The notes under the pieces are model-generated. The model worked only from the letters and a program-made list of their open reading frames with translations, did not search any database and was not told the origin of the DNA. Source: Patescibacteria group bacterium (GTDB lineage: Bacteria > Patescibacteriota > Patescibacteriia > UBA1558 > GWA2-36-10). From it: a stretch of DNA of 64,000 nt. A program made the translations under genes and the position numbers. Where the stretch lies: positions 98,097 through 162,096 of the forward strand of contig JAHJQF010000001.1 of NCBI GenBank assembly GCA_018819405.1, read 5' to 3'. Below are positions 1 through 48,312 of this stretch, one piece after another (the first letter of the stretch is position 1; the number at the start of each line of letters is the position of its first letter).

Positions 1-762
1 AGCATCTGAAAAAACACGTGGCCATAGATAAATACCTATCATACCGACTACTATCATCCCAAAAAATTTAACTATCATGCCAAAAATTCCAGCTTTATCC
101 AAAAACCTATCCTTTTCTTTTACTATTTTATTAAAAGAAATATCACCTACTACAAAATCTTTATTTATATTTAATTTGCTCAAAGACTGATAATAAAGAT
201 TTCCTCCTACATTGGCTCCTTCACTCAGTTGCAAAGGATTGTTGGCTGGCGTACCAGAAAGATATACATCTACATCATTTATAACCTTGCCGCTGATAGA
301 AGCTTTTTCCATAGCACCTTCTAGTCTACCAATTTCTCCGACAATAGAAACCATCTGACCAAAAAATGTAACATGGCCCAATACTTTACCATTACTATCA
401 ACCCTAAAATTTTGTCCCAGAGCCATGGCATTGCCACTAACTTCACCCGACACATCTACTCTTTGTCCGACTGCTCTGATAGATCCATTTATCTTGCCTT
501 TTATGGATATATTGTTTCCAGCTACAAAAATATCACCATTTATATTTTCTGAATCAATAGTGATTGTGTCACCAGCTACAAAAATGTCACCATTTACAGT
601 ACCATAAATTTCTATGGAATTACCGGCAGCATAGTAGTTTGTGTTTATGACCTTATCTTTGGCCAGAGTGACTACTTCACCACTTTGCCCGGCAAAAGCT
701 AAGGCTGACAAAGGCAAAGCCAAAAGCAGTGAAAAAATGACTAATTTTACGTGTTTAAACAT
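1..762 (-). CDS. Secreted or membrane-anchored beta-helix repeat protein, bactofilin-like (polymer-forming cytoskeletal family). The C-terminus runs off the window edge.
   Basis: ATG at 760-762 on the minus strand. Manual translation begins MFKHVKLVIFSLLLALPLSALA, which reads as a signal peptide. Repeated G-x-I/V-x-V/I-x-G units (GDIFVAGDTITI, GDIFVAGNNISIKG, GSIRAVGQRVDVSG) are typical of bactofilin (DUF583) beta-helices. The ORF track misses it because the ORF is open at the window edge. Confidence 0.5.
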   Translation of the reverse strand, partial: MFKHVKLVIFSLLLALPLSALAFAGQSGEVVTLAKDKVINTNYYAAGNSIEIYGTVNGDIFVAGDTITIDSENINGDIFVAGNNISIKGKINGSIRAVGQRVDVSGEVSGNAMALGQNFRVDSNGKVLGHVTFFGQMVSIVGEIGRLEGAMEKASISGKVINDVDVYLSGTPANNPLQLSEGANVGGNLYYQSLSKLNINKDFVVGDISFNKIVKEKDRFLDKAGIFGMIVKFFGMIVVGMIGIYLWPRVFSDA

Positions 763-838
763 AGTTGTTTTATTACTAATTATGTCCCTACATTTTAGCA
801 AATAGCCCCTAAAAATACAATTTTTTAGTTTTTAAAAA

Positions 839-872
839 AGTCCTACACCGTCACGGTGTAGGACTGCCTTTT
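839..872 (-). terminator. Rho-independent terminator for the minus-strand methyltransferase gene
   Basis: AGTCCTACACCG-TCA-CGGTGTAGGACT, a 12-bp perfect stem. A T6 run follows on the minus strand. Confidence 0.75.
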
Positions 873-1545
873 ACTTTGTCTTCTGAACAAAAGCATTTAT
901 ATTATATTTGGTCTTATAGACTCCCTCTGGCTGAAGATCAAAATGAGTCACTTTTAAAAGATAAACCAACTCACCGGTAGTAAAACTGTGATAGTATCGC
1001 CACTGTATATTATTTTTATCAGAGCGCCAAGGAATAAAAAAATCATTCCAGGAATGCTTGGACCAAAATTTTTCTAAAGAATATTTGAGATATTTTTTTT
1101 GCCATAGATTCCAATTGGTCATAAAAAGATAGCCCCCCGGCTTGAGCCAACGATTTATTTTAAAAAGTAGCTCCAAGCGCTCTCTTCTACTAGGGATGTG
1201 ATGAAAAGAGGCTATCATAAAAATCATATCAAAAGTGCCGGGCTCAAAATTCAAATCCACCATATCAGCTACTATAAATCTAGTGTCGGGGTGTTGTTTT
1301 CTGGCTTCCGCAACCAAATTTTCGCTAAAATCAACCCCTAGATAATTAAATTTTATATTGGCTGGTTGTATAGATTTTAAAAGTCGTCCATTACCGCAAC
1401 CCAGGTCTAAAATCTTGAAGTTATCTTTTATATATGGTATAAAGACTTGTAACTCTTGCCAAGGATAAACTCTAGTATGATTAAAATCACGGGCTACTTC
1501 GTTATATACGTTTTTAAGATGACTTTTTACTTTTTCACTTTTCAT
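871..1545 (-). CDS. Class I SAM-dependent methyltransferase
   Basis: LDLGCGNG motif (SAM-binding motif I) and a Rossmann-like layout. The track ORF is open back to 1596. The proposed start MKSEKV at 1545 shares a CATG with the divergent elp3 start. Confidence 0.75.
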   Translation of the reverse strand: MKSEKVKSHLKNVYNEVARDFNHTRVYPWQELQVFIPYIKDNFKILDLGCGNGRLLKSIQPANIKFNYLGVDFSENLVAEARKQHPDTRFIVADMVDLNFEPGTFDMIFMIASFHHIPSRRERLELLFKINRWLKPGGYLFMTNWNLWQKKYLKYSLEKFWSKHSWNDFFIPWRSDKNNIQWRYYHSFTTGELVYLLKVTHFDLQPEGVYKTKYNINAFVQKTK

Positions 1546-3184
1546 GCCAAAAAATATAAATAAAATATTAAAAGACGTTGTGCTGGAATTAAACAAGAAA
1601 AACTATTCCCATAATCTTGATTTTGTCCGAGACCTGAGAACTGTTTTTTCCAAACACTCTATTGCCCCAGAAGCAAAATCTAAACTTATTGTAACATATA
1701 AAGATTTGATTAAAAAGGGTATTATAAAAGAAAATAAAAAACTTGAACAACTACTGACCAAGAGGGCTGTCCGCACACTATCTGGTGTATCAGTCATTAC
1801 CGTCCTTACCAGGCCATACCATTGCCCAGGCAGATGCATCTATTGCCCACTTGAGCCTGGTATGCCCAAAAGCTATTTGTCCAATGAACCAGCGGCTCAA
1901 CGTGCCAAACGTAATTTTTTTGATCCTATCAGACAGGTGAACATGAGAATCCAAGCTTTGCAAAACAACGGCCACCAAGTAGATAAAATTGAAATAATAG
2001 TCTTGGGAGAAACCTGGTCAGCTTATCCAAAAAAATATCAAACTTCATTTATCCGTGACCTTTTTTATGCGGCCAATGTTTTCCGTTCGGCAAGCTCAGG
2101 ACAGGTTAACAAAAAAAATAAAAGGAAAGCTCGCTCACTCAAAGCTGAACAAAAAATAAATGAAAAGGCTCGTTACAAAATAATCGGCCTGACACTGGAA
2201 ACCAGACCAGACCACATCACTACTCAAGAAATAAAAAGACTACGCATGCTCGGAGCTACTCGTATGCAAATTGGTGTCCAGCACACTGATAATAAAATAC
2301 TTGATCTCATACAACGCGACCATCCAATAGAGCAAAGCATAAAGGCTACTCGTATGCTCAAAGAGGCCGGCTTCAAGGTAGACCATCACTATATGCCCGA
2401 CTTACCTGGTTCTACTCCAGCCAAAGATCTGAAAATGTTTGAGTATGTCTATAACTCTCCTGACCTACAACCTGACCAAATCAAAATATATCCTTGTGTA
2501 GTAAATGAGTATGCCCCCCTATACCAATGGTACAAAAAAGGCAAATACAAACCTTACAGCCCAAAAGAATTACTTGATCTTCTTTTGAAAATAAAAAAAA
2601 TAACACCTCCTTGGATAAGAATTAATCGCCTAATAAGAGACATACCTGAAGAAAGTATTATTGCCGGCAACAAAATCACCAACCTGCGTCAATATCTACA
2701 GGCGGAACTAAAAAAGCGAGGTCAATCTTGTCAGTGTTTGCGTTGCCGTGAAGTACGCGGTGATACCAAAGATGTAGACAAAGCTGTTTTGGTAAAAAGA
2801 GAATTTGCCGCTTCCCAAGGACAAGAAATATTTTTGAGTTTTGAAAGTAAAGACCATAAAAAAGTCTATGCTTTCCTGCGTCTAAGGTTTAATAAAAATC
2901 CAGAAAAAAATATATTTGCCGAATTAAAAAATGCCAGTCTAGTCAGGGAGCTACATGTCTATGGACAAATGATACCAACTTATGATGAAAAATCTGACGA
3001 AGAAATATCTCAAACCCAACACCTGGGACTGGGCAAACGCTTGATGGCCGAAGCAGAAAAAATCACCCACTCCCACGGCCTCAATAAAGTAGCGGTCATA
3101 TCAGGAATAGGAGTAAGAAATTATTACCGCAAATTAGGCTATCGTCTGGAGGGCACCTATATGACCAAGACTTTGACAAAATAA
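1544..3184 (+). CDS. elp3: Elp3-like radical SAM enzyme with a C-terminal GNAT domain (tRNA carboxymethyluridine synthase homolog)
   Basis: CPGRCIYCP is a radical-SAM CX3CX2C cluster motif (close variant of the canonical CX3CX2C; Elp3 proteins carry this spacing). The segment VDKIEIIVLGETWSAYPKKYQTSFIRDLFYA and the C-terminal KVAVISGIGVRNYYRKLGYRLEGTYMTK match my memory of the Elp3 central and HAT regions. Length 546 aa. Confidence 0.8.
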   Translation: MPKNINKILKDVVLELNKKNYSHNLDFVRDLRTVFSKHSIAPEAKSKLIVTYKDLIKKGIIKENKKLEQLLTKRAVRTLSGVSVITVLTRPYHCPGRCIYCPLEPGMPKSYLSNEPAAQRAKRNFFDPIRQVNMRIQALQNNGHQVDKIEIIVLGETWSAYPKKYQTSFIRDLFYAANVFRSASSGQVNKKNKRKARSLKAEQKINEKARYKIIGLTLETRPDHITTQEIKRLRMLGATRMQIGVQHTDNKILDLIQRDHPIEQSIKATRMLKEAGFKVDHHYMPDLPGSTPAKDLKMFEYVYNSPDLQPDQIKIYPCVVNEYAPLYQWYKKGKYKPYSPKELLDLLLKIKKITPPWIRINRLIRDIPEESIIAGNKITNLRQYLQAELKKRGQSCQCLRCREVRGDTKDVDKAVLVKREFAASQGQEIFLSFESKDHKKVYAFLRLRFNKNPEKNIFAELKNASLVRELHVYGQMIPTYDEKSDEEISQTQHLGLGKRLMAEAEKITHSHGLNKVAVISGIGVRNYYRKLGYRLEGTYMTKTLTK

Positions 3185-3252
3185 ACTAAATATAATTAAA
3201 TACAATAAAAGATCTTTAAACAACTGTCTTTCTCACAACAAGGAGGCTAAAA

Positions 3253-3540
3253 TTGAACACTTCCAGACACTCTATCAGCCTGCACAGGTCTGATGGAAAA
3301 CTAGGGGTGGACTTTGACTCTCCTGAAACACTAGCCAAATTCTTGGCTATACTAATAGAGGAAGGAAAGCCCGAAAACAGCTACTTGATCCCGGTCTTAG
3401 AAAATAATGGTGTAGTACCCAGAGACAACCCAGACTTTCGAGCCTTGCTCGATAGATTAGGTGTCACCGACTACACTATTCCCAATGTTCTGCGCGCTCG
3501 CTTTTTAGAAAAACTCCCCAAACTAGAAAAGGAGTCATGA
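3253..3540 (+). CDS. Hypothetical protein, first gene of GC-rich island 1
   Basis: TTG start at 3253 with AAGGAGG 6 nt upstream. About 55% GC against a ~35% background. No recognisable domain. Confidence 0.5.
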   Translation: MNTSRHSISLHRSDGKLGVDFDSPETLAKFLAILIEEGKPENSYLIPVLENNGVVPRDNPDFRALLDRLGVTDYTIPNVLRARFLEKLPKLEKES

Positions 3541-3541
3541 C

Positions 3542-3991
3542 ATGGAATATGAACTCAACCTAGGTTGGTTCGAAAAACTCCCGCTTGACCAAAAGGACGG
3601 ACTGATCAAGAACATCGAGGTGCGTGCCTCCAGAGACCTGTTTTCGGACAGGGAAGTACGCCTGGCCGCTGATGTCTGCCTGCCCATCCTCCGGGCTATC
3701 CGCCAGGGTCATGGCATCACTGCTGAGAGTCTGGACCTGGTCCAGCTGGCTGAAAGCCGAGGATTTCGTCGCTCGGAGATTGAGCCTATCATCAGGAAAG
3801 CCTGGCATCTGTTTCAAACGCCAATTCCCACCAAGCGAGCCGCTCGCTACATCGGCAAATCGCCACGACAGGCCAGACGTTTAGTAGCTCGGATGGCTCG
3901 CCGTAACGATGATGTGATCAAGACCGCCAAAGGCTGGCTGGTTCCTCTGGCCGCTCTCGATTCCTACCTGACTGGCGAGTGGCGGCCATAA
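3542..3991 (+). CDS. Putative HTH DNA-binding protein (excisionase/AlpA-like C-terminus), GC-rich island 1
   Basis: Arg-rich C-terminal segment AARYIGKSPRQARRLVARMARR...GWLVPL looks like a helix-turn-helix. Its start overlaps the upstream gene's stop (ATGA coupling). Followed by the GC-rich hairpin at 4008-4051. Confidence 0.5.
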   Translation: MEYELNLGWFEKLPLDQKDGLIKNIEVRASRDLFSDREVRLAADVCLPILRAIRQGHGITAESLDLVQLAESRGFRRSEIEPIIRKAWHLFQTPIPTKRAARYIGKSPRQARRLVARMARRNDDVIKTAKGWLVPLAALDSYLTGEWRP

Positions 3992-6489: not shown

Positions 6490-7116
6490 TCACCGATGAC
6501 AAACAAACACTATTTGTCTGTCGCCAGCAAAAAACTCATCATTCTTGGAGCCAATATGCTTGCCCACAAGGAAATTGGTGGATGCAGCATCAGGGTGGAT
6601 GCAAAAAATGACCAGATCGCCACTAACTCTGAGTTTGACAGGTTCCATAGCCAAGTAAAGCCATTCGTTCCAATGTCCATAATGTTGCAAACGCAATTGG
6701 GGACCAAGCTCAAACGGACATAGACCGTAACCCAACTCCAGACCGCGTTGGCAGATGTCGGGGTAGCGCGCGCCATCCTTGAAGCCGAGTTCTGCCACAG
6801 TCGGAGCAACAACATTGACCTCCATGGGCTGATCAAGAATCTCAATGTCAGTCTGGTCCAACATAGCACCGCCTACACGATCAACCTTCATGCCTTTTTC
6901 AGCAAAGGCTTGATAGAAATCACGACTTGTCTTAAGACCCGTGCCGAGCTTTACTCGACACAATACTGGGGAAAACCCAAAGGCTTTGCGCAAAATAGCA
7001 CGGAGTTTTTCTGGTTTACTGACGTAGACCTCCATCTCTTGACTGGACATCGTGGGTAAGTTTTCCACGACCACAGCAACAAAAGTCAACACTAGGTTAA
7101 AAAGTGACTTCGGCAT
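6490..7116 (-). CDS. Hypothetical protein on a GC-rich segment (island 2)
   Basis: 208-aa ORF of about 50% GC inside a low-GC genome. I recognise no domain. Confidence 0.45.
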   Translation of the reverse strand: MPKSLFNLVLTFVAVVVENLPTMSSQEMEVYVSKPEKLRAILRKAFGFSPVLCRVKLGTGLKTSRDFYQAFAEKGMKVDRVGGAMLDQTDIEILDQPMEVNVVAPTVAELGFKDGARYPDICQRGLELGYGLCPFELGPQLRLQHYGHWNEWLYLAMEPVKLRVSGDLVIFCIHPDAASTNFLVGKHIGSKNDEFFAGDRQIVFVCHR

Positions 7117-11095: not shown

Positions 11096-12157
11096 ATGTC
11101 TTTTTCCCTAGGAATTGTCGGCCTACCAAATGTCGGCAAATCAACACTATTTCAAGCATTAACCAGAAACAAGGTAGAAGCCAGTAACTACCCTTTTTGT
11201 ACTATTGATCCCAATGTCGGCGTGGTGGCAGTGCCAGACGAACGACTGGAAAAATTGGCTTTGATGTCAAAATCCGCCAAAATAATTCCCACCACCATTG
11301 AATTTGTGGACATTGCCGGACTAGTCAAGGGCGCGTCAGAAGGAGAAGGATTAGGTAACAAGTTTTTGGCTCACATTAGAGAGGTGGACGCCATAGTGCA
11401 AGTGGTCCGACGCTTTGAAGACAAAAATGTCACTCATGTCCATGGCAATATTGATCCGGAATATGACAAACAAATAATTAACCTAGAGCTTATTCTAGCC
11501 GACCTTGATACAGTGACTAAGACTTATGACAAAGTGGTCTCCAAAATAAAAGGCCCTCATGACAAGCAACTTGACGCAGAAAAAATAGTTTTGGAACGTG
11601 TCAAAGAAGTATTAGAAAACAATCAATTGGCTAATACTCTAGAATTTAAACCTGAAGAAAAAAAATTACTACGTGGCTACAATCTTTTGACTACCAAGCC
11701 AATTATATACCTATACAATATAGACGAAGTTGATTTGTCCGCCGACTTGGGACTGCCGGAAAACACTATTCCTATTTGCGCCAAAATAGAAGCTGAGCTA
11801 GCTGATTTGGAAGCAAACGAAGCCAAAGAGTATCTCAAAGAATTGGGTATTGCCAAAAGCGGCTTGGACAATCTGATTACTGCTAGTTACAAATTACTTA
11901 ATCTCATTACCTTTATTACCACCGGCCCGGAAGAAACCAGAGCCTGGACAGTGGAAGATGGCGCCAAAGCCCCACAAGCGGCTGGAGTGATTCATACCGA
12001 CTTTGCCAAAGGCTTTATCAGAGCCGAAGTCATAAATTGGCAGACCCTACTAGATGATGGCGGCTGGAATCAGGCCAAAGAAAAAGGACATATGCGTATG
12101 GAAGGCAAAGAATATATTATCAAAGATGGTGATACTGTCCATTTTCATTTTAACTAA
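11096..12157 (+). CDS. ychF: Ribosome-binding ATPase YchF
   Basis: [15 protein letters not shown]-loop and a C-terminal TGS-like region. 353 aa. Confidence 0.9.
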
Positions 12158-16711: not shown

Positions 16712-17765
16712 CCACAATTCTGGAAGGATTAATTGCCTCGTCTTTCGGGTATAATTTATAGCTGTAGTAATTACTTACAAAATCTTCTACAGTTTTTTTA
16801 TTATAGCCAGAAAGCACAGCATTTTGTCCCAAGCCTTCTTGCCTCTCAGTTTTTTGTCTCAATATCAAACAAGGCTTACCTAGATAAAAACTCTCCTCTT
16901 GATTGCTCCCACCATCAGTAATAATAAATTCGGCCTTATCCATTAATTTTATAAAATCAAAATAATCATACCGTGGCCTGAGTTCTATATTTTTATTATT
17001 TTTTAACCTGTTATAAAAATCAAATTTTCTTAATTTATCCTTAGTAGGCGGGTGTAATATAAACAAAAGCTTTATACTATCAGCTGTATCCTCTATCAGC
17101 TCAATCAAAGACAAAAATCTATTTTTTTTGAAAACATTTTCAAAACGATGCAATGATACAATGGCAAATTTTTCCTGAGGGATATCCAGATTTTGTTTAG
17201 TATCGCTATCTATAGCTAATTTGACTGAATCATAAAGAGTATTATAAATTGTATCTATTTTTTTACCTTTATATTTTTCTAAATTGCCCATCGCCCAAGC
17301 TCCTGGACAAAAATAATAATCAGTTAAGTGAAAAGTAAGATACCTAAATATTTCTTCTGGAAAAGGGTGAAAAAAATTAAAAGATCTAAGACCTGATTCT
17401 AAATGGCTATTTTTTAATCCAGCCAGCTTGGCCAATATTGACCCCAAGAGAGTAGTAAAAGTATCACCATGATTGATGACAATTCCATTTTTATCATCTT
17501 TAAATATTTCTTTTTTGTTTTTCAAAAATTTAAAAATAATTTTGCCGCCCCATGCAATCATCTGACTGACTTTGACAATGTCTGGACCTGAATATAAAAC
17601 AATGTCTGGTTTTTTGACTCCAAAATTTTCCATCAGATCATCCATAGTCTCTTTATGCTGACCACTGATAATAAAATTGTAATCAACGCCCCTGTCTTGA
17701 AGTTCTTTCATCAAGGGAGCCACTTTGATAAGCTGGGCTTTTGTGCCTATTATGATATGAATCAT
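16683..17765 (-). CDS. UDP-N-acetylglucosamine 2-epimerase-like (WecB family)
   Basis: IHIIIGTKAQLIKVAPLMKEL and ITDGGSNQEES resemble the WecB N- and C-terminal motifs. Convergent 29-nt overlap with the GT2 gene. Confidence 0.65.
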   Translation of the reverse strand: MIHIIIGTKAQLIKVAPLMKELQDRGVDYNFIISGQHKETMDDLMENFGVKKPDIVLYSGPDIVKVSQMIAWGGKIIFKFLKNKKEIFKDDKNGIVINHGDTFTTLLGSILAKLAGLKNSHLESGLRSFNFFHPFPEEIFRYLTFHLTDYYFCPGAWAMGNLEKYKGKKIDTIYNTLYDSVKLAIDSDTKQNLDIPQEKFAIVSLHRFENVFKKNRFLSLIELIEDTADSIKLLFILHPPTKDKLRKFDFYNRLKNNKNIELRPRYDYFDFIKLMDKAEFIITDGGSNQEESFYLGKPCLILRQKTERQEGLGQNAVLSGYNKKTVEDFVSNYYSYKLYPKDEAINPSRIVANFLIQNFL

Positions 17766-17827
17766 GATATTACTTTATCATATAGTAAAATATCTGCAAA
17801 TATCTTTTTAATCCTGAACCAATATGT

Positions 17828-17836
17828 GCTATAATG
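17828..17836 (+). promoter_or_regulatory. Extended -10 promoter element (TGCTATAAT) for the candidate sRNA
   Basis: A TGnTATAAT match sits about 6 nt upstream of the inverted-repeat region that begins at 17842. Confidence 0.35.
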
Positions 17837-17837
17837 T

Positions 17838-18040
17838 ATTTGTAGTAGTTCATTGTTTTACTTCTTTAGCAAATAGTAGCTACACTAAAATCGCACAAAT
17901 GCACAAAGTGCTAGAAATAAAAACAAAACAATCTTAGTGAACTACTACCTTGCTCTGAAGACAATTAACAACTGAATATGGAAAACGTGGAAGTTTTCTA
18001 AAACTCCGTCGACATTGGGGCCGACGGAGTTTATTTTTGC
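17838..18040 (+). ncRNA. Candidate small structured RNA (promoter to terminator, about 200 nt, no ORF)
   Basis: 5' GTAGTAGTTCA (17842-17852) pairs with TGAACTACTAC (17938-17948). Ends at the hairpin AACTCCGTCG...CGACGGAGTT followed by TATTTTT (18001-18038). No plausible ORF lies on this strand. Confidence 0.35.
18001..18038 (+). terminator. Rho-independent terminator
   Basis: 10-bp stem AACTCCGTCG/CGACGGAGTT with a GC-rich loop, followed by TTATTTTT. Confidence 0.6.
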
Positions 18041-18194
18041 CAATTTTGCCTATGAACGAAGTGAGTAGTTACAAAATTGAGCACCTCGCGCAAACGGGGT
18101 AAAGCCAAGTAGCTTAAATATATATTCTTGACATACAATGAAAATAATGATAAAAATTGTTTATAAGACAATAAAATTAGTTTGATAGACAAAT

Positions 18195-18330
18195 TCACCC
18201 CGTTAAATAAATTCAATTTAATGGGTGATAATAGAAACCATATAGTATATTTTTAAAAAACATACAATAAACTAGCTAATTAATTGAATTTAAAATTTAA
18301 GAAACTTAAATTTTATTTAACGGGGTAAAT
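18195..18330. repeat. CCCCGTTAAATAAA inverted-repeat pair, copy b
   Basis: Left arm TTCACCCCGTTAAATAAA (18195-18212). Right arm TTTTATTTAACGGGGTAAAT (18311-18330) ends 1 nt before the ATG at 18331. Confidence 0.7.
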
Positions 18331-37088: not shown

Positions 37089-38141
37089 TTATATTTTATT
37101 TTTGGTAAGTTGCCAATTAGACTGGGGACCAAGACTAAATACCTTTTTAGCTGGCAAGATATCCTTTTTCTTGTCTTTTATATTATAATAAGCGGCAACG
37201 GCTATCATAGCGGCATTATCTCCAGTAAACTTCAGCTCTGGATAAAAAAACGGTAAGTCTATTTCTTTGGCTCTACTGGCCAAAGATGCTTTTAAAAAAC
37301 TATTAGCTGACACCCCTCCCGCTAGTAGTAAAGATTTGACTTTATATTTTTTTACAGCCTTAAAAGTCTTGGTAGTTAAAACATCGGTAACCGCTGTTTG
37401 AAACGAAGCACAAACATCTTTGACATCCTGCTGGTTCAATTTTTTCTTTTTTTCCAAAGCATATAATACTGCCGTCTTGAGACCAGCAAAAGAAAAATCA
37501 AAATTTTTCTTGTCCATCATTGGTCTGGGAAAATCATATTTTTGACCGTCTCCTGACTCAGCCAATCGACTGACAATCGGCCCACCCGGATATCCCAGAT
37601 TCAAAAGCTTGGCGACTTTATCGTAAGCTTCACCAACTGCGTCATCTAAAGTTTGACCAAGTAAAAAATACTGCCCATGCCCTTTCATCAACACCAGCTC
37701 AGTATGTCCACCCGATACTATAAGTACGAGAGCTGGGAAATATTTCTTTGGATTTTTTACTAACTCACTATTGGAAAGCCAATTGGAATAAATATGGCCT
37801 TCCATATGATTGATTGGCATGAGCGGTTTATTATTAGCATAAGCTAATGTTTTAGCCGCGCTAATTCCTAAAATTAAAGAAGTAATAAGACCCGGTCCAG
37901 CAGTAACAGCTAGATAATCTATACCCGCTAATTTGTTTTTACCGGTTATTTCTTCTAGCAAAGGTATAATGGTCTCGGCATGTTTTCTAGCAGCTACTTC
38001 CGGCACCACCCCACCATATTTTGTGTGTATATCAACTTGAGAATAAACAATATTTTTTTCTAAAACCAAAAAAGATCCGCTGCCTTTTATCACGGCTACA
38101 GCTGTCTCATCGCAAGATGTTTCAATTGCTAAAATTTTCAT
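37089..38141 (-). CDS. tsaD: tRNA N6-adenosine threonylcarbamoyltransferase TsaD
   Basis: MKILAIETSCDETAVAV N-terminus of the Kae1/YgjD family. 350 aa. Confidence 0.9.
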   Translation of the reverse strand: MKILAIETSCDETAVAVIKGSGSFLVLEKNIVYSQVDIHTKYGGVVPEVAARKHAETIIPLLEEITGKNKLAGIDYLAVTAGPGLITSLILGISAAKTLAYANNKPLMPINHMEGHIYSNWLSNSELVKNPKKYFPALVLIVSGGHTELVLMKGHGQYFLLGQTLDDAVGEAYDKVAKLLNLGYPGGPIVSRLAESGDGQKYDFPRPMMDKKNFDFSFAGLKTAVLYALEKKKKLNQQDVKDVCASFQTAVTDVLTTKTFKAVKKYKVKSLLLAGGVSANSFLKASLASRAKEIDLPFFYPELKFTGDNAAMIAVAAYYNIKDKKKDILPAKKVFSLGPQSNWQLTKNKI

Positions 38142-38254
38142 CCACTTGGAAATTTAAGCTAATTAATAATAATAAAATTATCTTAATATCTATTATATTA
38201 TACATTATAGCAGACTTGACCTTTACTATAAACTAATTAGATATCAAGCTAATT

Positions 38255-38266
38255 TAAGATAAAAAA
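38255..38266. promoter_or_regulatory. Perfect 12-bp palindrome GTCAATATTGAC upstream of the island 4 operon (candidate operator)
   Basis: Lies in the AT-rich leader about 160 nt upstream of the 452-aa gene. TTGACA-like hexamers are nearby. Confidence 0.3.
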
Positions 38267-38425
38267 TGCTTTGTGTCAATATTGACCAATAAAAATAAAA
38301 ATGTAAAAATAAAGCTAATGAGCTGTGTACATTGACAAGCTCAAGATATAATTCTAGCGAGGGGTAAAACTCCTCTTTTGTTTATTTGAAAAAGCCAAAA
38401 AACCCTTTCACGAAGGAGGACTACA

Positions 38426-39784
38426 ATGCCTAGTAATCAAAACGGAATCAAAATTTCCGGCGACAAAAAAGACTGTCTGCGTCTAGCCTCATGGCTGACT
38501 AGTACGGTCGCCAAAAATGTGGCTGGTATCAGAGAAATCAAACTATCAGGAACATCAGGACTGTGTGACAGAGCTATAGCCCTAAAAGAGAATCAAATGT
38601 GCCTTATGGTGCAAGGAGACCAAGTGCTTTGGCACTTTTGCCAAACAAAGAGCTGTGCGTCACAAATCTTTGTGCTCAAGCCTCAGAACAATGTCGAGGC
38701 AGATATTTTGCTAAAAACTTTAGCTGACTATCTGACCAAGATCTGTGGCAAGACTAGCATCAACTTGGTCAAAGCACTGGAATGCGGTCCACAACAACTC
38801 GTCAACAAATATTCACGCCCCGCCATCAGCCAACCAGAAGACCCAAGCCATATCCTCTACTCTAGACGCTTTCCTCAACCAATCAAACTGCCAGAAAAAA
38901 CCGAAGAGGTCTATCTGGCTCTACTGCTTCTTTTACCCACTTACGGACAGGCACTTCTGGACGTAAGCGGAGTTTTTCTCCTGCCCAATCCCGTCCGTCT
39001 TCTTGATGAATTTGCCCACAACTTGGGAAAACAAAAACTCTGGTGGCAAACCGGCTGGAGTCAACTCCTAAAAATCACTCCCAAGATAATCGAACGTGCC
39101 CGTAACGGCAAAGGGATGCTTGTCCATCGCATTAGATTGGAATCAAATGGAGTATTGGCCACAAACTTGCAGACCAAAAAGGAGGCTGAGACAATGCCGG
39201 AAAAAACCTTTAGACTCAATGCTAGACAACACATGGTCTACCACTCCCTTTTGAGATTGGCCGGAGATGATCTTGCTAATGTCGTGGAAATCAGTCGCTA
39301 CGCCACCAGATTGCTCAAGCTTTCCAGCTTTGACATTCCCAGAGGCAGTATTAGCAACTACATCAAACAGCTAACCAGACTAGGCTTGGTCGAAAATGGC
39401 TCTCAGCGCGGTAACATCAAGGTTTACCGCCAGCCCACCTCTATTATTGACGGTCATCAAGCCACCGATCCGCCAAAGAAAGTCGAAAAAAAAGTTGCCA
39501 AAAAGGGAAACGGCGATGACAATACGACAACAGACAATCCTGATACTCCTACCTCTTCCAAGACACCACAAAAACCTGGTAATGGTAGCAATAGCTTGCT
39601 TGCCATACTGACTGGCGGAAACGGAACAGGAGACTCTGTCGACCAACTGGTCGAACAGGCCACCAGACAATTTCACGGCATCGGCGGTGTGTTGGAGTTG
39701 GCTCGACGTTTACAAGAAGCCGGCTTCCAGACCCACGACAACAACGACGGCACACACACTATTTCTTTCACCACCAGCAAGTGA
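38426..39784 (+). CDS. Hypothetical 452-aa protein with a predicted winged-HTH and a low-complexity linker (GC-rich island 4)
   Basis: About 52% GC. AAGGAGG lies 6 nt upstream. A wHTH-like segment (ARQHMVYHSLLRLAGDDLANVVEISRYATRLLKL...GNIKVY). A K/T/D/N-rich linker. Own terminator at 39812-39842. Confidence 0.55.
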   Translation: MPSNQNGIKISGDKKDCLRLASWLTSTVAKNVAGIREIKLSGTSGLCDRAIALKENQMCLMVQGDQVLWHFCQTKSCASQIFVLKPQNNVEADILLKTLADYLTKICGKTSINLVKALECGPQQLVNKYSRPAISQPEDPSHILYSRRFPQPIKLPEKTEEVYLALLLLLPTYGQALLDVSGVFLLPNPVRLLDEFAHNLGKQKLWWQTGWSQLLKITPKIIERARNGKGMLVHRIRLESNGVLATNLQTKKEAETMPEKTFRLNARQHMVYHSLLRLAGDDLANVVEISRYATRLLKLSSFDIPRGSISNYIKQLTRLGLVENGSQRGNIKVYRQPTSIIDGHQATDPPKKVEKKVAKKGNGDDNTTTDNPDTPTSSKTPQKPGNGSNSLLAILTGGNGTGDSVDQLVEQATRQFHGIGGVLELARRLQEAGFQTHDNNDGTHTISFTTSK

Positions 39785-39811
39785 GCATCATCTTGAGCAC
39801 AGAAACATGAG

Positions 39812-39842
39812 GGCACGCGAAACAGAACGCGTGCCTTTTTTT
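39812..39842 (+). terminator. Canonical rho-independent terminator (GGCACGCG-AAACAGAA-CGCGTGCC-TTTTTTT)
   Basis: Perfect 8-bp GC stem followed by a T7 run. Confidence 0.8.
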
Positions 39843-39845
39843 GTA

Positions 39846-39874
39846 TTGACAAAATCCCAATATATTACTAATAT
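39846..39874 (+). promoter_or_regulatory. Sigma70 promoter for the cupin gene
   Basis: TTGACA, a 17-nt spacer, then TAATAT. Confidence 0.5.
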
Positions 39875-39920
39875 ATGCAATTACGCTCCCCTCACAGAAA
39901 CCCAAACCCAGGAGGAAAAC

Positions 39921-40427
39921 ATGCTCATTATCAGACAGGGTCTCCAAGGCATTGCTGTGCTTGACCACAGCAAAGAGCTCGGCCAGCCTGGCCAGTACAG
40001 CTCCTACAAAGGAGACGAACTGGAAGATCTGGCCAGCATCGTAGCGGCAGCCAAAACCAATGGCTTTGAAATCCGCTACTACTACAAGGATCTGCATACC
40101 TCGGCGAGCGAGATCATTCCGACCAAAATAATCATCACCGACATTCCGCCGATGACTGTCCAGAAGTTCCACAGCCATCAGGCCGTACACGAGCTTTCGG
40201 TGGTCACCGACGGCGAAATCGTAGTCATCGATTCCGACGTCCTGAACGAAGCTGATGTCGAGGCCATTCGAAGCCAGGGCGTCGCTCTCCGTGTCAACGA
40301 CATGGTGATCGAAGATCCGGGAGTACGCCACAGCGTAGCCAACCTCACAGACAGCTACGCTACCTTCACCACGGTCCAGACTGCCCGAATTCCCTTTGAA
40401 AGATTTGAGGCCGACTGGGTGCGCTAA
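39921..40427 (+). CDS. Cupin-domain metalloprotein (GC-rich island 4)
   Basis: Cupin motif 1 HSHQAVHELSVVTDG (HxH(x)4E(x)6G) and motif 2 PGVRHSVAN (PG(x)2H(x)3N). AGGAGG lies 8 nt upstream of the ATG at 39921. The track ORF upstream extension (from 39687) is rejected. Confidence 0.65.
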   Translation: MLIIRQGLQGIAVLDHSKELGQPGQYSSYKGDELEDLASIVAAAKTNGFEIRYYYKDLHTSASEIIPTKIIITDIPPMTVQKFHSHQAVHELSVVTDGEIVVIDSDVLNEADVEAIRSQGVALRVNDMVIEDPGVRHSVANLTDSYATFTTVQTARIPFERFEADWVR

Positions 40428-40462
40428 ACAAGCTCACCAAGGCCTGCGCACAGGCCCAAAAA

Positions 40463-40496
40463 GGACTTCCCCGCGAGGAAGTCCTTTTTATTTTTA
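40463..40496. terminator. Bidirectional terminator at the island 4 boundary
   Basis: GGACTTCC-CCGCGAG-GGAAGTCC followed by TTTTTATTTTT. Confidence 0.75.
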
Positions 40497-40775
40497 ATAT
40501 ACTTTGATATCTTTTTCAAAATCCGGAAAATAGTCTTTGACTTGCCGGACATCAAAATCACTTATTATTTTTTCCTTTGATTCATGAGAAAGCAAAAACA
40601 TAAAAACATCCTGAATTAGTTGGCCGGCCGGTATTTTTTCATTTGTCAGATAAATATAATAGTCCCTGTCTAAAACCACGCTGTACATCTGCCTATTGCT
40701 ATCGTCGCCTATTTCTACATCAAATTTCCATTTGCCATTTTTACTATAGGTATTTTTTATAGTAATATTGTCCAT
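40494..40775 (-). CDS. Hypothetical small protein (93 aa)
   Basis: Complete ORF with no recognised domain. Confidence 0.4.
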   Translation of the reverse strand: MDNITIKNTYSKNGKWKFDVEIGDDSNRQMYSVVLDRDYYIYLTNEKIPAGQLIQDVFMFLLSHESKEKIISDFDVRQVKDYFPDFEKDIKVY

Positions 40776-40820
40776 AAGATAATAATCTGTTATGTTTTAA
40801 TTAACTTAATATATTCTAAT

Positions 40821-41465
40821 ATGTCCCGGAAAAAAATGCAAAAATTTGCCGAGGCCGAAAATTTCCCCAATCTTATTCAATTACATCAAAAAGATCATAA
40901 GGAAAGGCTTCAAAAAATTCTATCTACAAAAAAAGATATTATCTTGGAGCTGGCTTGCGGCCGTGGAGAATACACTTTGGCACTAGCCCAAAAAGATTCT
41001 AAAAAAAATTTCATTGGTATAGATATCCAGGGCGAACGTTTATGGAATGGCGCCAAATATGCACTAGAAAACAAAATAAGTAATGCCTATTTTTTGAGAA
41101 TCCAAATAGAAGACTTGGAAAAATATTTTAAAAAAAAATCTATCCAAGAAATTTGGATTACTTTCCCTGATCCATACCCAAGAAAAGGCCAAATCAAAAA
41201 AAGACTTACTAGCCCAAAATTTTTACAAATTTATAAAAACATACTAAAAAAAGAATCTCTATTAAACCTTAAAACTGATGACAAAAATCTCTATGATTAT
41301 AGTCAAACTAGTATAAAAGACTTTGGCGGCCAGCTAAAAGAAAAAATAGAAGATATATATAGCCAAGATAATTTACCTGATTATCTAAAAATACAAACCA
41401 ATTTTGAAAAAAAACACTTATTGGCTGGCAAAAAAATTTATTATTTAAGCTTTTCTTTAAAGTAG
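40821..41465 (+). CDS. trmB: tRNA (guanine-N7)-methyltransferase
   Basis: LELACGRGEYTLALAQ (SAM site) and WITFPDPYPRK, a TrmB signature. Confidence 0.85.
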   Translation: MSRKKMQKFAEAENFPNLIQLHQKDHKERLQKILSTKKDIILELACGRGEYTLALAQKDSKKNFIGIDIQGERLWNGAKYALENKISNAYFLRIQIEDLEKYFKKKSIQEIWITFPDPYPRKGQIKKRLTSPKFLQIYKNILKKESLLNLKTDDKNLYDYSQTSIKDFGGQLKEKIEDIYSQDNLPDYLKIQTNFEKKHLLAGKKIYYLSFSLK

Positions 41466-44540: not shown

Positions 44541-44705
44541 CTAGCGACCCAGACGAGGCTTTCTCTGCCTCCTATTGAGACCAGCCCCACGACGATTATT
44601 TGGGGCAATTTGCCCTTCTGGAAGGGCACTATTGGCACAGTTTCCCATGCCACGCCCTGTCATTGAGCCCTGACCATTTGGCCCTGTACCGTCTCTATTT
44701 GGCAT
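44541..44705 (-). CDS. DUF5320 family small protein
   Basis: MPNRDGTGPNGQGSMTGRGMGNC is the characteristic DUF5320 N-terminus. The start is taken at the internal Met. Pairs with DUF134. Confidence 0.6.
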   Translation of the reverse strand: MPNRDGTGPNGQGSMTGRGMGNCANSALPEGQIAPNNRRGAGLNRRQRKPRLGR

Positions 44706-46512: not shown

Positions 46513-48312
46513 ATGTGTGGAATCATCGGCTATATTGGTGACAAAAAAAGCGTCCCTATACTTTTGGAAGGTCTGGAAAAATTGGAATACCGAGGTTATG
46601 ACAGTGCTGGGATATGTGTCCTGTCCAACAAACAACTTACTAGTATCAAGAAAAAAGGTAAAGTCTCAGAATTGGCCAAACAGGAAAAAATAAAAAACCT
46701 GACTGGTATGATTGGCATTGCTCACACTCGTTGGGCAACACATGGCGAACCAAATGAAATAAATGCCCACCCTCATTTGGACTGTCATGGAGATATCGCT
46801 ATCGTCCACAACGGTATCATAGAAAATCACCAAGCCCTAAAACAACTTCTAATAAAACAAGGCCATAAAATAAAATCTGAGACTGATTCAGAAATAGTGG
46901 CTCACCTGATAGAAAAATTTTATCAGGGCAACTTAGAGCAAGCTGCCCGCCAAGCTATAGGGCTAATAGATGGGGCTTTTGGATTGGCTATAATACACAA
47001 AAGTGAAGATAAGATAGTGGTCGCCAGACGAGGCTCACCATTGATATTGGGTGTAGGTAAAGGCGAGATGTTTGTTGCTTCTGATGTGCCGGCCATACTA
47101 AAATATACCAAAAAAGTAATTTACCTCAATGATGATGAGATAGCTATAATATCCAAAAATAAATATATTATCAAAAATATAAGTGGTCAGAAAATAAACA
47201 AAAACACCCATGAAATAAAATGGAGTGTCGACCAAATAGCCAAACAAGGCTACAAGCATTTTATGCTCAAAGAAATATTTGAACAGCCTCAAGCTCTGAC
47301 CAATACTTTACGCGGTCGGATAAATAAAAACCAAATTAAGCTATCTATTAATTTAGATATAAAAAAAATAAAAAGAATAGTCATCACGGCCTGTGGCACC
47401 TCCTGGCACAGCGCTTTGATTGGCAAATATCTATTGGAAGACATTGCTCGTATGCCTACTGAGGTAGATTATGCTTCTGAATTCCGCTATCGAGACCCAA
47501 TAGTATCCAAAGAGGATTTAGTTATTGCTGTTTCCCAATCTGGAGAAACAGCCGATACTTTGGCAGCCCTCAAGGAGGCTAAAAGCAAATCAGCCAAGAC
47601 TCTGGGCATAGTAAATGTAGTAGGCTCTACTATCACCAGAGAGGTTGACTCTGGTATATATTTACACGTCGGTCCAGAAATTGGTGTAGCTTCTACCAAA
47701 GCTTTTACTTCTCAGGTGTTGGCTCTTTTGATGTTGTCTTTATATATTGCTCAGCAAAAAAACATACCTTTTGATAAAAAAATATTATCTGACCTAGCTA
47801 AGGTACCTGAAAAAATTGGCCAAGTTTTGACTCAAGCTGACAAAATAAAAAAAATAGCCAAAGAATTTAAGAACAGCCGCAATTTTTTGTATTTAGGCCG
47901 CGGCCTCAATTTTCCGGTTGCTCTAGAAGGCGCTCTCAAATTAAAAGAAATTTCCTATATCCATGCTGAGGGTTATCCGGCCGCTGAGATAAAACACGGC
48001 CCTATAGCTCTGATTGATCAGGACATGCCGGTAATATTTTTGGCCACCAAAAATAATCTTTCTCAAAAAATAATCAGCAATATGCAAGAAGTCAAAGCTA
48101 GGGGTGGTCAAATCATAGCTATAGTAAATGACCTAGACAAAGAAATAAAAAAATTGGTAGACTATATTATCGAAGTACCAAAAATAAGTAATGAGTTGTC
48201 ACCAGTTGTAAATGTGATACCATTACAGCTCTTGGCTTATTATATAGCTGATATAAAGGGTCTGGACGTGGACAAACCCCGAAACCTGGCCAAAAGTGTC
48301 ACCGTAGAATAA
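46513..48312 (+). CDS. glmS: Glutamine--fructose-6-phosphate aminotransferase
   Basis: MCGIIGYIG N-terminal nucleophile. Two SIS domains. C-terminal ...SVTVE. Confidence 0.95.
   Translation: MCGIIGYIGDKKSVPILLEGLEKLEYRGYDSAGICVLSNKQLTSIKKKGKVSELAKQEKIKNLTGMIGIAHTRWATHGEPNEINAHPHLDCHGDIAIVHNGIIENHQALKQLLIKQGHKIKSETDSEIVAHLIEKFYQGNLEQAARQAIGLIDGAFGLAIIHKSEDKIVVARRGSPLILGVGKGEMFVASDVPAILKYTKKVIYLNDDEIAIISKNKYIIKNISGQKINKNTHEIKWSVDQIAKQGYKHFMLKEIFEQPQALTNTLRGRINKNQIKLSINLDIKKIKRIVITACGTSWHSALIGKYLLEDIARMPTEVDYASEFRYRDPIVSKEDLVIAVSQSGETADTLAALKEAKSKSAKTLGIVNVVGSTITREVDSGIYLHVGPEIGVASTKAFTSQVLALLMLSLYIAQQKNIPFDKKILSDLAKVPEKIGQVLTQADKIKKIAKEFKNSRNFLYLGRGLNFPVALEGALKLKEISYIHAEGYPAAEIKHGPIALIDQDMPVIFLATKNNLSQKIISNMQEVKARGGQIIAIVNDLDKEIKKLVDYIIEVPKISNELSPVVNVIPLQLLAYYIADIKGLDVDKPRNLAKSVTVE

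Follow-up and report, generated by a model that had tools for sequence, protein, structure and literature searches.

A GC-rich segment between tsaD and trmB of a Patescibacteria genome may hold two independent single-gene expression units

Results

The subject of this report is a segment (38240–40500) of a 64-kb stretch of contig JAHJQF010000001.1 from a Patescibacteria group bacterium (GCA_018819405.1), the whole of which stretch is called the window below. Between tsaD and a small conserved open reading frame (ORF) of 93 residues (93 aa) that adjoins trmB, the gene for a TrmB-type methyltransferase, the segment carries a gene for a 452-aa protein with predicted winged helices and, on the same strand, a gene for a 168-aa single-domain cupin (Table 1). 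An initial annotation had taken the two for a cassette acquired recently by horizontal transfer. We consider it reasonably probable that they are instead two independent single-gene expression units, unit A (~38277–39845, the 452-aa gene) and unit B (~39846–40496, the cupin gene), from an accessory pool that differs from the core genome in composition and in translation signals.

Composition and translation signals of the segment

Guanine-plus-cytosine (GC) content over the segment is 47.3%, the highest of all 2.26-kb windows in the 64 kb, against 36.5% for the window as a whole. The initial annotation was right in calling the segment GC-rich, but its figure of about 52% is approached only in the richest 1-kb window (39501–40500, 51.4%). 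Tetranucleotide usage in the segment is also the most deviant (z = 5.3 for the L1 distance, r = 0.64 to the rest of the window), and the codon adaptation of both genes to the resident genes is low (z = -4.25 for the 452-aa gene, -7.5 for the cupin gene). GC at third codon positions (GC3) is 0.49 in the former and 0.675 in the latter, compared with 0.26–0.33 in resident neighbours. By sliding GC, tetranucleotide z and codon z alike, the segment deviates beyond chance and has a composition and codon usage atypical for the genome, as in an acquired island; the compositional observation is sound.

The GC steps near 38300 and 40490 are abrupt, as they would be if higher-GC reads had been stitched into a low-GC contig during assembly or binning. 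Such a chimera is highly improbable: the junction of tsaD with a GC-rich gene recurs in independent assemblies from other samples (L030/L031 and L033), there is no break between resident intergenic DNA and the AT-rich promoter and leader of unit A, which are conserved from locus to locus, the hairpin downstream belongs also to the resident 93-aa ORF and has a homologue in L030, and the islands are only 0.6–1.6 kb long inside a contig of ~1.04 Mb. Given the recurrence of the tsaD junction, faulty assembly of the source genome does not account for the atypical junctions.

The segment is set apart by its translation signals as well. A Shine-Dalgarno (SD) core (GGAG, GAGG or AGGA) precedes the start in five of five GC-rich ORFs and in none of 47 resident ORFs (Fisher p = 4e-7); with any start within the first 40 codons allowed, six of six GC-rich ORFs score, as against 2 of 47 resident ORFs, at internal chance sites. 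The initial annotation's statements that both genes of the segment have AGGAGG (each 5–6 nt ahead of its ATG) and that resident genes lack such sequences are thus confirmed, and the genome seems to use two styles of initiation, core genes starting without an SD and GC-rich genes with one.

Both genes have a promoter-like site and a terminator-like hairpin with T-runs to themselves, the TTGACA-17-TAATAT site of the cupin gene and the two hairpins having been correctly predicted beforehand. These separate signals, and the fact that the 452-aa family and the cupin never occur together elsewhere, speak against a two-gene cassette or any single module: the cupin is missing from six other loci of the 452-aa family, and a relative of the 452-aa protein from about six cupin loci. 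It would favour one recent acquisition of a regulator together with an enzyme, possibly from the host of an episymbiont, that the genes are both compositionally foreign, adjacent, SD-bearing and on the same strand, and that the cupin is missing from L030, the closest relative found. We nevertheless regard that history as quite improbable, in view of the strong, family-conserved terminator and separate promoter between the genes, their unequal GC3, the failure of the pair to recur, the positional homologues of the 452-aa gene, equal in GC, in L030 and L033, and the absence of any donor or host homologue of the 452-aa protein outside its lineage among ~15 billion proteins.

Unit A has kept its place beside tsaD

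On L030, a 195-kb contig from another sample, the gene order valS-tsaE-tsaD-[gene of the 503-aa P0007]-92-aa ORF-...-trmB-fn3 is as in the window. The neighbours in L030 are 65–87% identical to the window's, P0007 only 42% over the shared part, and the P0007 gene, preceded by an SD-like GGGGGTG, has 47.3% GC in a contig of 35.5% GC. In L033, tsaD (74% identical) is followed by the gene of the 610-aa P0009, with a GC content of 47.1%. A GC-rich homologue therefore directly adjoins tsaD in two further, independent assemblies (L030/L031 and L033). As these homologues are positional and equally GC-rich in low-GC relatives, the 452-aa gene is not the recent arrival that the initial annotation had supposed. 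TsaD identities of 80, 74 and 73% and family identities of 42, 33 and 24–37% rank the relatives in the same order, which agrees with vertical inheritance of a fast-evolving protein. A TsaD search of the GTDB species genomes returned distant relatives only (<=44% identity), the source genome not among them, and offered no empty site for comparison. We suggest that the presence of unit A at this site predates the split between the window genome, L030 and L033, and that the protein of unit A has since evolved fast by domain loss and duplication.

The untranslated flanks of unit A are better conserved than its protein

The regions upstream of the gene were aligned for seven family loci, and the 3' comparisons cover the six full-length ones (window, L030, L032, L033, L035, L037). 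Despite differing upstream contexts, all seven loci keep a promoter-like block, TTGAC(C/T)-17-AAAAAT, and all seven retain an SD-like GGAGG or GAGGTG. Between the two lies a leader box whose core, GCTCAAGAT, is an exact 9-nt inverted match to a 3' box just beyond the stop codon (39790–39798), followed by a leader hairpin that is predicted at the same place in 7/7 loci, its stem sequences varying while the pairing is kept (GAGGGG/CTCCTC, AAGGCT/AGCCTT, AAGGAT/ATCCTT, GAGGGC/GCTCTC). Three loci, those linked to tsaD, have a T-run behind the hairpin, which is there scored as terminator-like; from its sequence the hairpin looks like a terminator or attenuator. The leader box was not found elsewhere in the window, where its 17-mer occurs once, so that there is no sign of a regulon, and nothing in the leader or the rest of the island matched a known RNA family in Rfam.

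On the other side of the gene, a 3' box of the form ATCTTGAG(C/T) stands within a few nucleotides of the stop codon in all six full-length loci. The L033 boxes show a matched change (CTCAAGGT/ACCTTGAG), the complementarity is extended in L030 and in L035, in each in its own way, and the best predicted duplex between the 5' and 3' untranslated regions takes in both boxes in 6/6 loci, with 94% paired cells in the register given here and 26–41% when the register is slid. The data fit two readings of the boxes, as partners in an mRNA duplex or as a pair of operator sites. Beyond the 3' box, the stem and loop of the terminator are near-identical in the window, L030, L032, L037 and L035, though the proteins are 35–47% identical, and the non-coding flanks of unit A as a whole are better conserved than the 452-aa protein. 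Since conservation runs past the boxes on both sides, to the promoter and the terminator, the inverted boxes do not mark where a mobile element ends.

The 452-aa protein belongs to a small family of shuffled modules

Exhaustive HMMER and profile searches of ~15 billion proteins yielded eight family members, the window protein and seven relatives (P0007–P0011, the repeat protein P0012, and P0013), while a word-indexed homology search recovered only the 452-aa protein itself. Homology searches place the family in one kind of low-GC contig only, and as judged from these searches it is new, very small and unannotated. An AlphaFold2 model of the 452-aa protein built on a 7-sequence alignment (mean predicted local distance difference test score, pLDDT, 62, domains 66–90; the single-sequence model was unusable, with a pLDDT of 34) predicts an N-terminal alpha/beta domain (~aa 9–114), winged helix A (~145–240), winged helix B (~262–340), a disordered linker (342–400) and a small helix-plus-hairpin domain (404–447). 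The three-helix bundle and beta-hairpin wing of a winged helix are both present in the predicted structure. The winged helix, the linker and the lack of a recognisable catalytic domain (in Pfam, NCBIfam and PDB profile searches) agree with the initial annotation, which had not foreseen that there would be two predicted winged helices behind an N-terminal alpha/beta domain.

Assignment to a named family failed. The best winged-helix family match was TrmB, at 14.3 bits against a cut-off of 25.6, the relatives give only single weak matches to MarR_2 and DUF2250, and fold matches are to generic winged helices only. PADLOC and NCBIfam returned nothing, and PDB searches by sequence and by profile returned nothing for the 452-aa protein or the cupin. 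A PD-(D/E)xK or RNase H-like nuclease was considered for the N-terminal domain and was dropped on inspection, no conserved acidic/lysine triad being common to the two N-terminal modules, N1 and N2.

Of these modules, N1 is present in all family members but the window protein, and N2 in the window protein, P0008, P0013 and P0009. They are followed by a module that starts with YSRRFP, contains LWWQxGW and corresponds to predicted winged helix A, then by a second winged-helix module, a low-complexity linker and a conserved C-terminal domain of ~50 aa; P0010 consists of N1 and winged helix A, and P0011 of N1, a winged helix and the C-terminal domain. Profile comparison aligns N1 and N2 in register (E = 4.9e-4, probability 32%), which suggests an old duplication. 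The family's MP... start runs straight into N2 in the window protein, which therefore looks like the product of an in-frame loss of N1. The 199-aa P0012 (a weak family match, E = 5e-5) is made of tandem ~55-aa repeats resembling part of the N-terminal module.

Module junctions also carry internal SD-ATG pairs. In the window gene an in-frame AGGAGG lies 8 nt ahead of the ATG of Met257, at the junction before winged helix B, and the same arrangement is found at that junction in L030 (M321) and L033 (M403). At the junction of N1 with N2 or with winged helix A, AAGGAGGGAGG-N7-ATG is present in L030, L032, L033, L034 and L037. Met257 could possibly start a short isoform of 196 aa, comprising winged helix B and the C-terminal domain, and the pairs in general fit either nested isoforms or the fusion of once-separate cistrons. 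As Glu/Gly-rich linkers favour purine-rich codons, we take the pattern as a lead and not as proof.

Searches for a donor and a vehicle of transfer

No donor lineage was found for the 452-aa gene or the cupin, no integrase or transposase gene at the locus, no tRNA gene within 8 kb of the segment, and no family of tandem or iteron-like repeats in 37800–41000. The segment is bracketed by a 28-nt inverted repeat (38239–38266/40485–40512, 75% matching, AT-rich, ending in AGATATCAA/TTGATATCT), the right arm of which overlaps the end of the 93-aa ORF; it is probably a product of chance in AT-rich DNA. Phage and plasmid collections gave no match, and neither IMG/VR nor a JGI metagenome scan yielded anything with the winged-helix-A profile.

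These results bear on the possibility that unit A is what remains of an integrated plasmid or phage-like element, with the 452-aa protein as its replication initiator or replisome organiser and the boxes as element ends or origin sites. Residues 263–387 match phrog_186 ('DnaD-like helicase loader', E = 2.3e-5) and phrog_270 ('replication initiation protein', E = 8e-4), there are weak Foldseek matches to phage models named 'Replication initiator A' and 'replisome organizer', family members stand in three or more genomic contexts, and inverted boxes flank the ORF on either side. We consider it improbable all the same. PHROG families 186, 270 and 428 match the window protein and none of six relatives, and on this ground the filing as a replication initiator was dropped; the fold matches are generic winged-helix matches, with TM-scores (template modelling scores) below 0.2 on the query, the viral ones being weak (best E = 5e-4, TM-score 0.13–0.15 on the query); integrase, iterons, other element genes and matches in phage, plasmid and IMG/VR collections (the last with the winged-helix-A profile) are all missing; the conserved stretch does not end at the boxes but takes in the promoter and terminator; and the site is chromosomal and syntenic.

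Unit B is a stand-alone cupin gene with relatives in several settings

The cupin matches Pfam Cupin_2 (PF07883) by a small margin, at 27.9 bits against a cut-off of 27.2 (E = 2e-6, residues 73–152), and a PDB search by sequence gave no cupin match. The metal ligands of cupins are carried by motif 1, G(X)5HXH(X)3-4E(X)6G, and motif 2, G(X)5PXG(X)2H(X)3N. In the window cupin, motif 1 is FHSHQAVHELSVVTDG and motif 2 is DPGVRHSVAN, one residue shorter between P and H, and H84, H86, H90, E91, H137 and N141 are invariant in five family members, so that both metal-binding motifs noted in the initial annotation are indeed there with their metal-site residues intact. By its sequence the protein is presumably a small metal-dependent enzyme or ligand-binding protein. 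We propose no substrate, since neighbours are not conserved across the cupin loci, and the family, like that of the 452-aa protein, is uncharacterised.

Homologues at 43–51% identity occur in several settings. In L040 and L041 the cupin is a single gene of 44–45% GC in contigs of 34–35% GC with neighbours that lack an SD, and it comes with a TTGACA promoter, a GGAGG SD, a TTG start and a GC hairpin terminator. In the 60% GC contigs L003–L006 it has a GC3 of 0.90 and an SD, while nearby nusA, yidC and groES/EL have none. In L001, where genes have ~37% GC, the cupin is of native composition (GC3 0.30), again with an SD, and a 16S rRNA gene follows downstream. The homologues in L001, L003, L040 and L041 all have GGAGG or AAGGAG ahead of the start. 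On L001 the cupin gene (994–1503) is ~360 bp from the 16S rRNA gene (1864–3341), and the contig stops at position 1524 of the 1533-position 16S model, so that the anti-SD end is missing.

At the orthologous site in L030 the cupin ORF is absent. The family terminator is followed there by GGATTGACAAAAT, which equals the -35 element of the cupin promoter, then by 14 nt and by a homologue of the hairpin at 40458–40489, which ends the 92-aa ORF; the -35 part (ATTGACAAAAT) is thus present without the cupin. The indel between the window and L030 is ~595 bp, bounded on each side by CCCAA, a 5-nt repeat compatible with chance. As the cupin's GC3 of 0.675 is well above the 0.49 of unit A, a later insertion of the cupin is favoured. 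The hairpin downstream of the cupin gene lies between it and the convergent 93-aa ORF and is therefore probably bidirectional.

Other GC-rich genes in the window and at related loci

Three further units in the window are GC-rich (45–56%) and SD-bearing (3253–3991, and 6490–7116 and 44544–44705 on the minus strand), and GC-hairpin terminators are present in the first two, the two that were read. Their 95-aa, 149-aa and 208-aa products gave no family match; the 54-aa product of the third is related to a DUF5320-annotated protein of L030, where the gene and its SD are conserved. Other genes of this kind occur in L030 without a counterpart in the window: one encoding 110 aa, placed between the 92-aa ORF and trmB, one for a response regulator, and an MliC-like gene. 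The two relatives carry different GC-rich SD-bearing genes, and accessory islands turn over between them. A 599-aa ORF in the window (46513–48312, GC 38%, no SD) has no counterpart between the matching L030 neighbours (16842–17891 and 17896–18297).

In L037 and L032, too, low-GC genes without an SD alternate with GC-rich genes that have one. In otherwise low-GC sequence there, GC-rich genes adjoin members of the 452-aa family (L037 2622–3950, L032 2372–5717); those beside family members include an asparaginyl-tRNA synthetase gene (GC3 0.61, SD AAGGAG) and genes for an OPT transporter and an M20 peptidase (GC3 0.71–0.85). With the synthetase among them, an essential gene seems to be part of the GC-rich set, and the 90% cluster of this enzyme includes a protein named from a metagenome-assembled Patescibacteria genome. 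GC-rich 336-aa genes stand next to family members in both L035 and L037 and show no relationship to each other.

Such genes might not be imports. They could be native, a class kept GC-rich and SD-led for the sake of mRNA structure, regulated translation or internal initiation, and their composition would then say nothing about origin. Several observations agree with this: unit A is confined to its lineage, stays in place and has a GC3 of 0.43–0.53 in 7/7 loci; its SD is conserved family-wide, with internal SD-ATG pairs at domain junctions; the cupin keeps its SD in every genome, whatever the GC content; and the SD-bearing DUF5320 gene is conserved between the window and L030. We think native status unlikely, however, since the GC-rich genes are those that vary most (the cupin, the L030 110-aa gene, the response regulator and the MliC-like gene are each in one genome only), since the GC3 of the cupin family tracks its context from 0.90 to 0.30, as expected of transfer followed by decay, and since GC-rich neighbours in L032 and L037 reach a GC3 of 0.61–0.85, which is hard to see as a native optimum where GC3 is ~0.3.

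Table 1. Positions of the features discussed (window coordinates unless a relative is named; + and - are strands).
Feature	Position	Strand	Remarks
tsaD	37089–38141	-	flanking gene
Promoter-like site of 452-aa gene, TTGACC-17-AAAAAT	38282–38310	+	TG ahead of second hexamer; pattern scan
Leader box GTACATTGACAAGCTCAAGATA	38327–38348	+	core GCTCAAGAT at 38339–38347; alignment of 7 leaders
Leader hairpin GAGGGGTAAAACTCCTC then TTTTGTTTAT	38359–38385	+	stem-loop 38359–38375; terminator-like scan match
SD AGGAGG of 452-aa gene	38414–38419	+	
452-aa protein ORF	38426–39784	+	GC 47.3%
Internal in-frame AGGAGG and ATG	39180–39196	+	AGGAGG 39180–39185; ATG 39194–39196 (Met257)
3' box ATCTTGAGC	39790–39798	+	6 nt past stop codon; reverse complement of leader box core
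Intrinsic-terminator-like hairpin GGGCACGCG-AAACAGAA-CGCGTGCC with T-run	39809–39845	+	end of unit A; hairpin 39809–39838; pattern scan
Promoter-like site of cupin gene, TTGACA-17-TAATAT	39846–39874	+	pattern scan
SD AGGAGG of cupin gene	39910–39915	+	
168-aa single-domain cupin	39921–40427	+	ATG at 39921; GC 54.7%, GC3 67.5%
Hairpin AAAAAGGACTTCCCCG/CGAGGAAGTCCTTTTT with T-runs	40458–40496		hairpin 40458–40489; between cupin gene and 93-aa ORF
Conserved 93-aa ORF	40494–40775	-	flanking gene, convergent with cupin
TrmB-type methyltransferase gene (trmB)	40821–41465		flanking gene
Other GC-rich SD-bearing gene	3253–3540		
Other GC-rich SD-bearing gene	3542–3991		
Other GC-rich SD-bearing gene	6490–7116	-	
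Other GC-rich SD-bearing gene	44544–44705	-	
L030 GC-rich SD genes missing from window	11807–12139; 1984–2373; 676–1641		L030 coordinates
N1-junction internal starts	L030 M142; L033 M144; L032, L037, L034 M142		residue numbers

Discussion

We suggest that the segment between tsaD and the small ORF adjoining trmB holds two independent single-gene units. Unit A would encode a lineage-restricted DNA-binding protein built of shuffled modules, the window copy having lost its first N-terminal module, and a plausible role for this protein is that of a transcription regulator, probably acting on its own gene. Its expression is probably controlled after initiation as well, by the attenuator-like leader hairpin, by pairing of the leader box with the 3' box over 8–13 bp, and by the internal SD-ATG at Met257, from which the short isoform could arise. 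Unit B would be one member of a family of promoter-SD-ORF-terminator cassettes dispersed among several Patescibacteria-like genomes that otherwise go without an SD; its higher GC3 and its absence in L030 suggest that it was probably added after unit A, and its arrival would have been by recombination after DNA uptake and not by a recognisable mobile element.

Several points weigh against this account. As the searches turned up neither a donor nor an integrase, a transposase, a tRNA target or a convincing flanking repeat, composition is left as the sole sign of a foreign origin. The GC3 of unit A is still 0.43–0.49 in three genomes whose TsaD proteins differ by 20–26%, which fits poorly with the slow decay of an old import, and selection, or repeated replacement, may hold its GC content high. 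The -35 remnant in L030 fits a loss of the cupin there as well as a gain in the window lineage. As to the RNA, the covariation score of the two boxes was reached by 68 of 500 shuffles, which for six sequences is not significant alone, and the pairing is backed by one compensatory change at each of two pairs. The model of the 452-aa protein is of moderate quality (predicted template modelling score, pTM, 0.31), and its N- and C-terminal domains have no informative fold match. If the account is wrong, the locus amounts to two hypothetical genes of atypical composition.

A bolder proposal, which we put forward tentatively and regard as rather unlikely, is that unit A represents an undescribed self-contained module, in which a hypervariable multi-winged-helix protein with nested isoforms is made from an mRNA closed by 5'/3' pairing beside an attenuator, in a lineage with two initiation regimes, an SD-less core and an SD-led GC-rich accessory set. 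The two regimes, if real, would be especially notable if the 16S rRNA of this genome belongs to the Parcubacteria subgroup without an anti-SD (PMC9297842); about half of Parcubacteria are reported to lack this motif in their 16S rRNA (PMC9297842), and no rRNA gene lies within the 64-kb window.

Patescibacteria are ultra-small symbionts with minimal genomes, and how they gain and express genes bears on their adaptation to hosts. The locus shows clearly that a gene can be foreign in composition without being recent: one that is GC-rich and SD-led has kept a single chromosomal site through genome divergence, with its protein remodelled and its untranslated regions unchanged. The split between an SD-less core and SD-bearing accessory genes offers a way of flagging the latter in genomes of this type, and it raises the question of how these ribosomes start translation.

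Some features of the locus recall known systems. Pairing of the 5' with the 3' untranslated region regulates certain bacterial mRNAs, such as that of icaR in Staphylococcus aureus, and in unit A likewise the sequence just past the stop codon is complementary to the gene's own 5' leader; here, in contrast, the 5' partner is not the ribosome-binding site, the putative pairing is 8–13 bp, and the boxes could equally be operators. From winged-helix regulators of the MarR, TrmB, CRP C-terminal domain and HrcA types, the 452-aa protein differs in falling below every Pfam and NCBIfam threshold, in having no recognisable ligand-binding domain, and in the layout of its family, with Cys-containing alpha/beta modules, tandem winged helices, a long disordered linker and a small C-terminal domain. 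Two consecutive winged helices and weak PHROG and BFVD matches are reminiscent of the tandem winged-helix proteins that initiate or organise replication in plasmids and phages (Rep/RepA proteins, DnaD-like proteins and the N-terminal domain of lambda gpO), whereas these matches are not common to the relatives, iterons, an origin and partner genes are lacking, and the gene is chromosomal and syntenic. Small bacterial cupins of the Cupin_2 type and the window cupin have the His-x-His...Glu and ...His...Asn motifs in common, as well as a barrel region of the same size; the window cupin differs from them in an extra conserved N-terminal region of ~70 aa, and it has no NCBIfam match and no conserved neighbours.

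The closest parallel in kind is with single-gene transfers, mostly within the phylum, which have been described as common in Patescibacteria from aquifer genomes (PMC12455944). The present islands differ from those transfers and small islands in that no donor-recipient pair is identifiable, in that they carry strong SD sequences unlike the core, and in that unit A is conserved in position and found in no other lineage. They resemble them in being short, atypical accessory segments in streamlined genomes, and the occurrence of the cupin family in several Patescibacteria-like contigs fits exchange mostly within the phylum.

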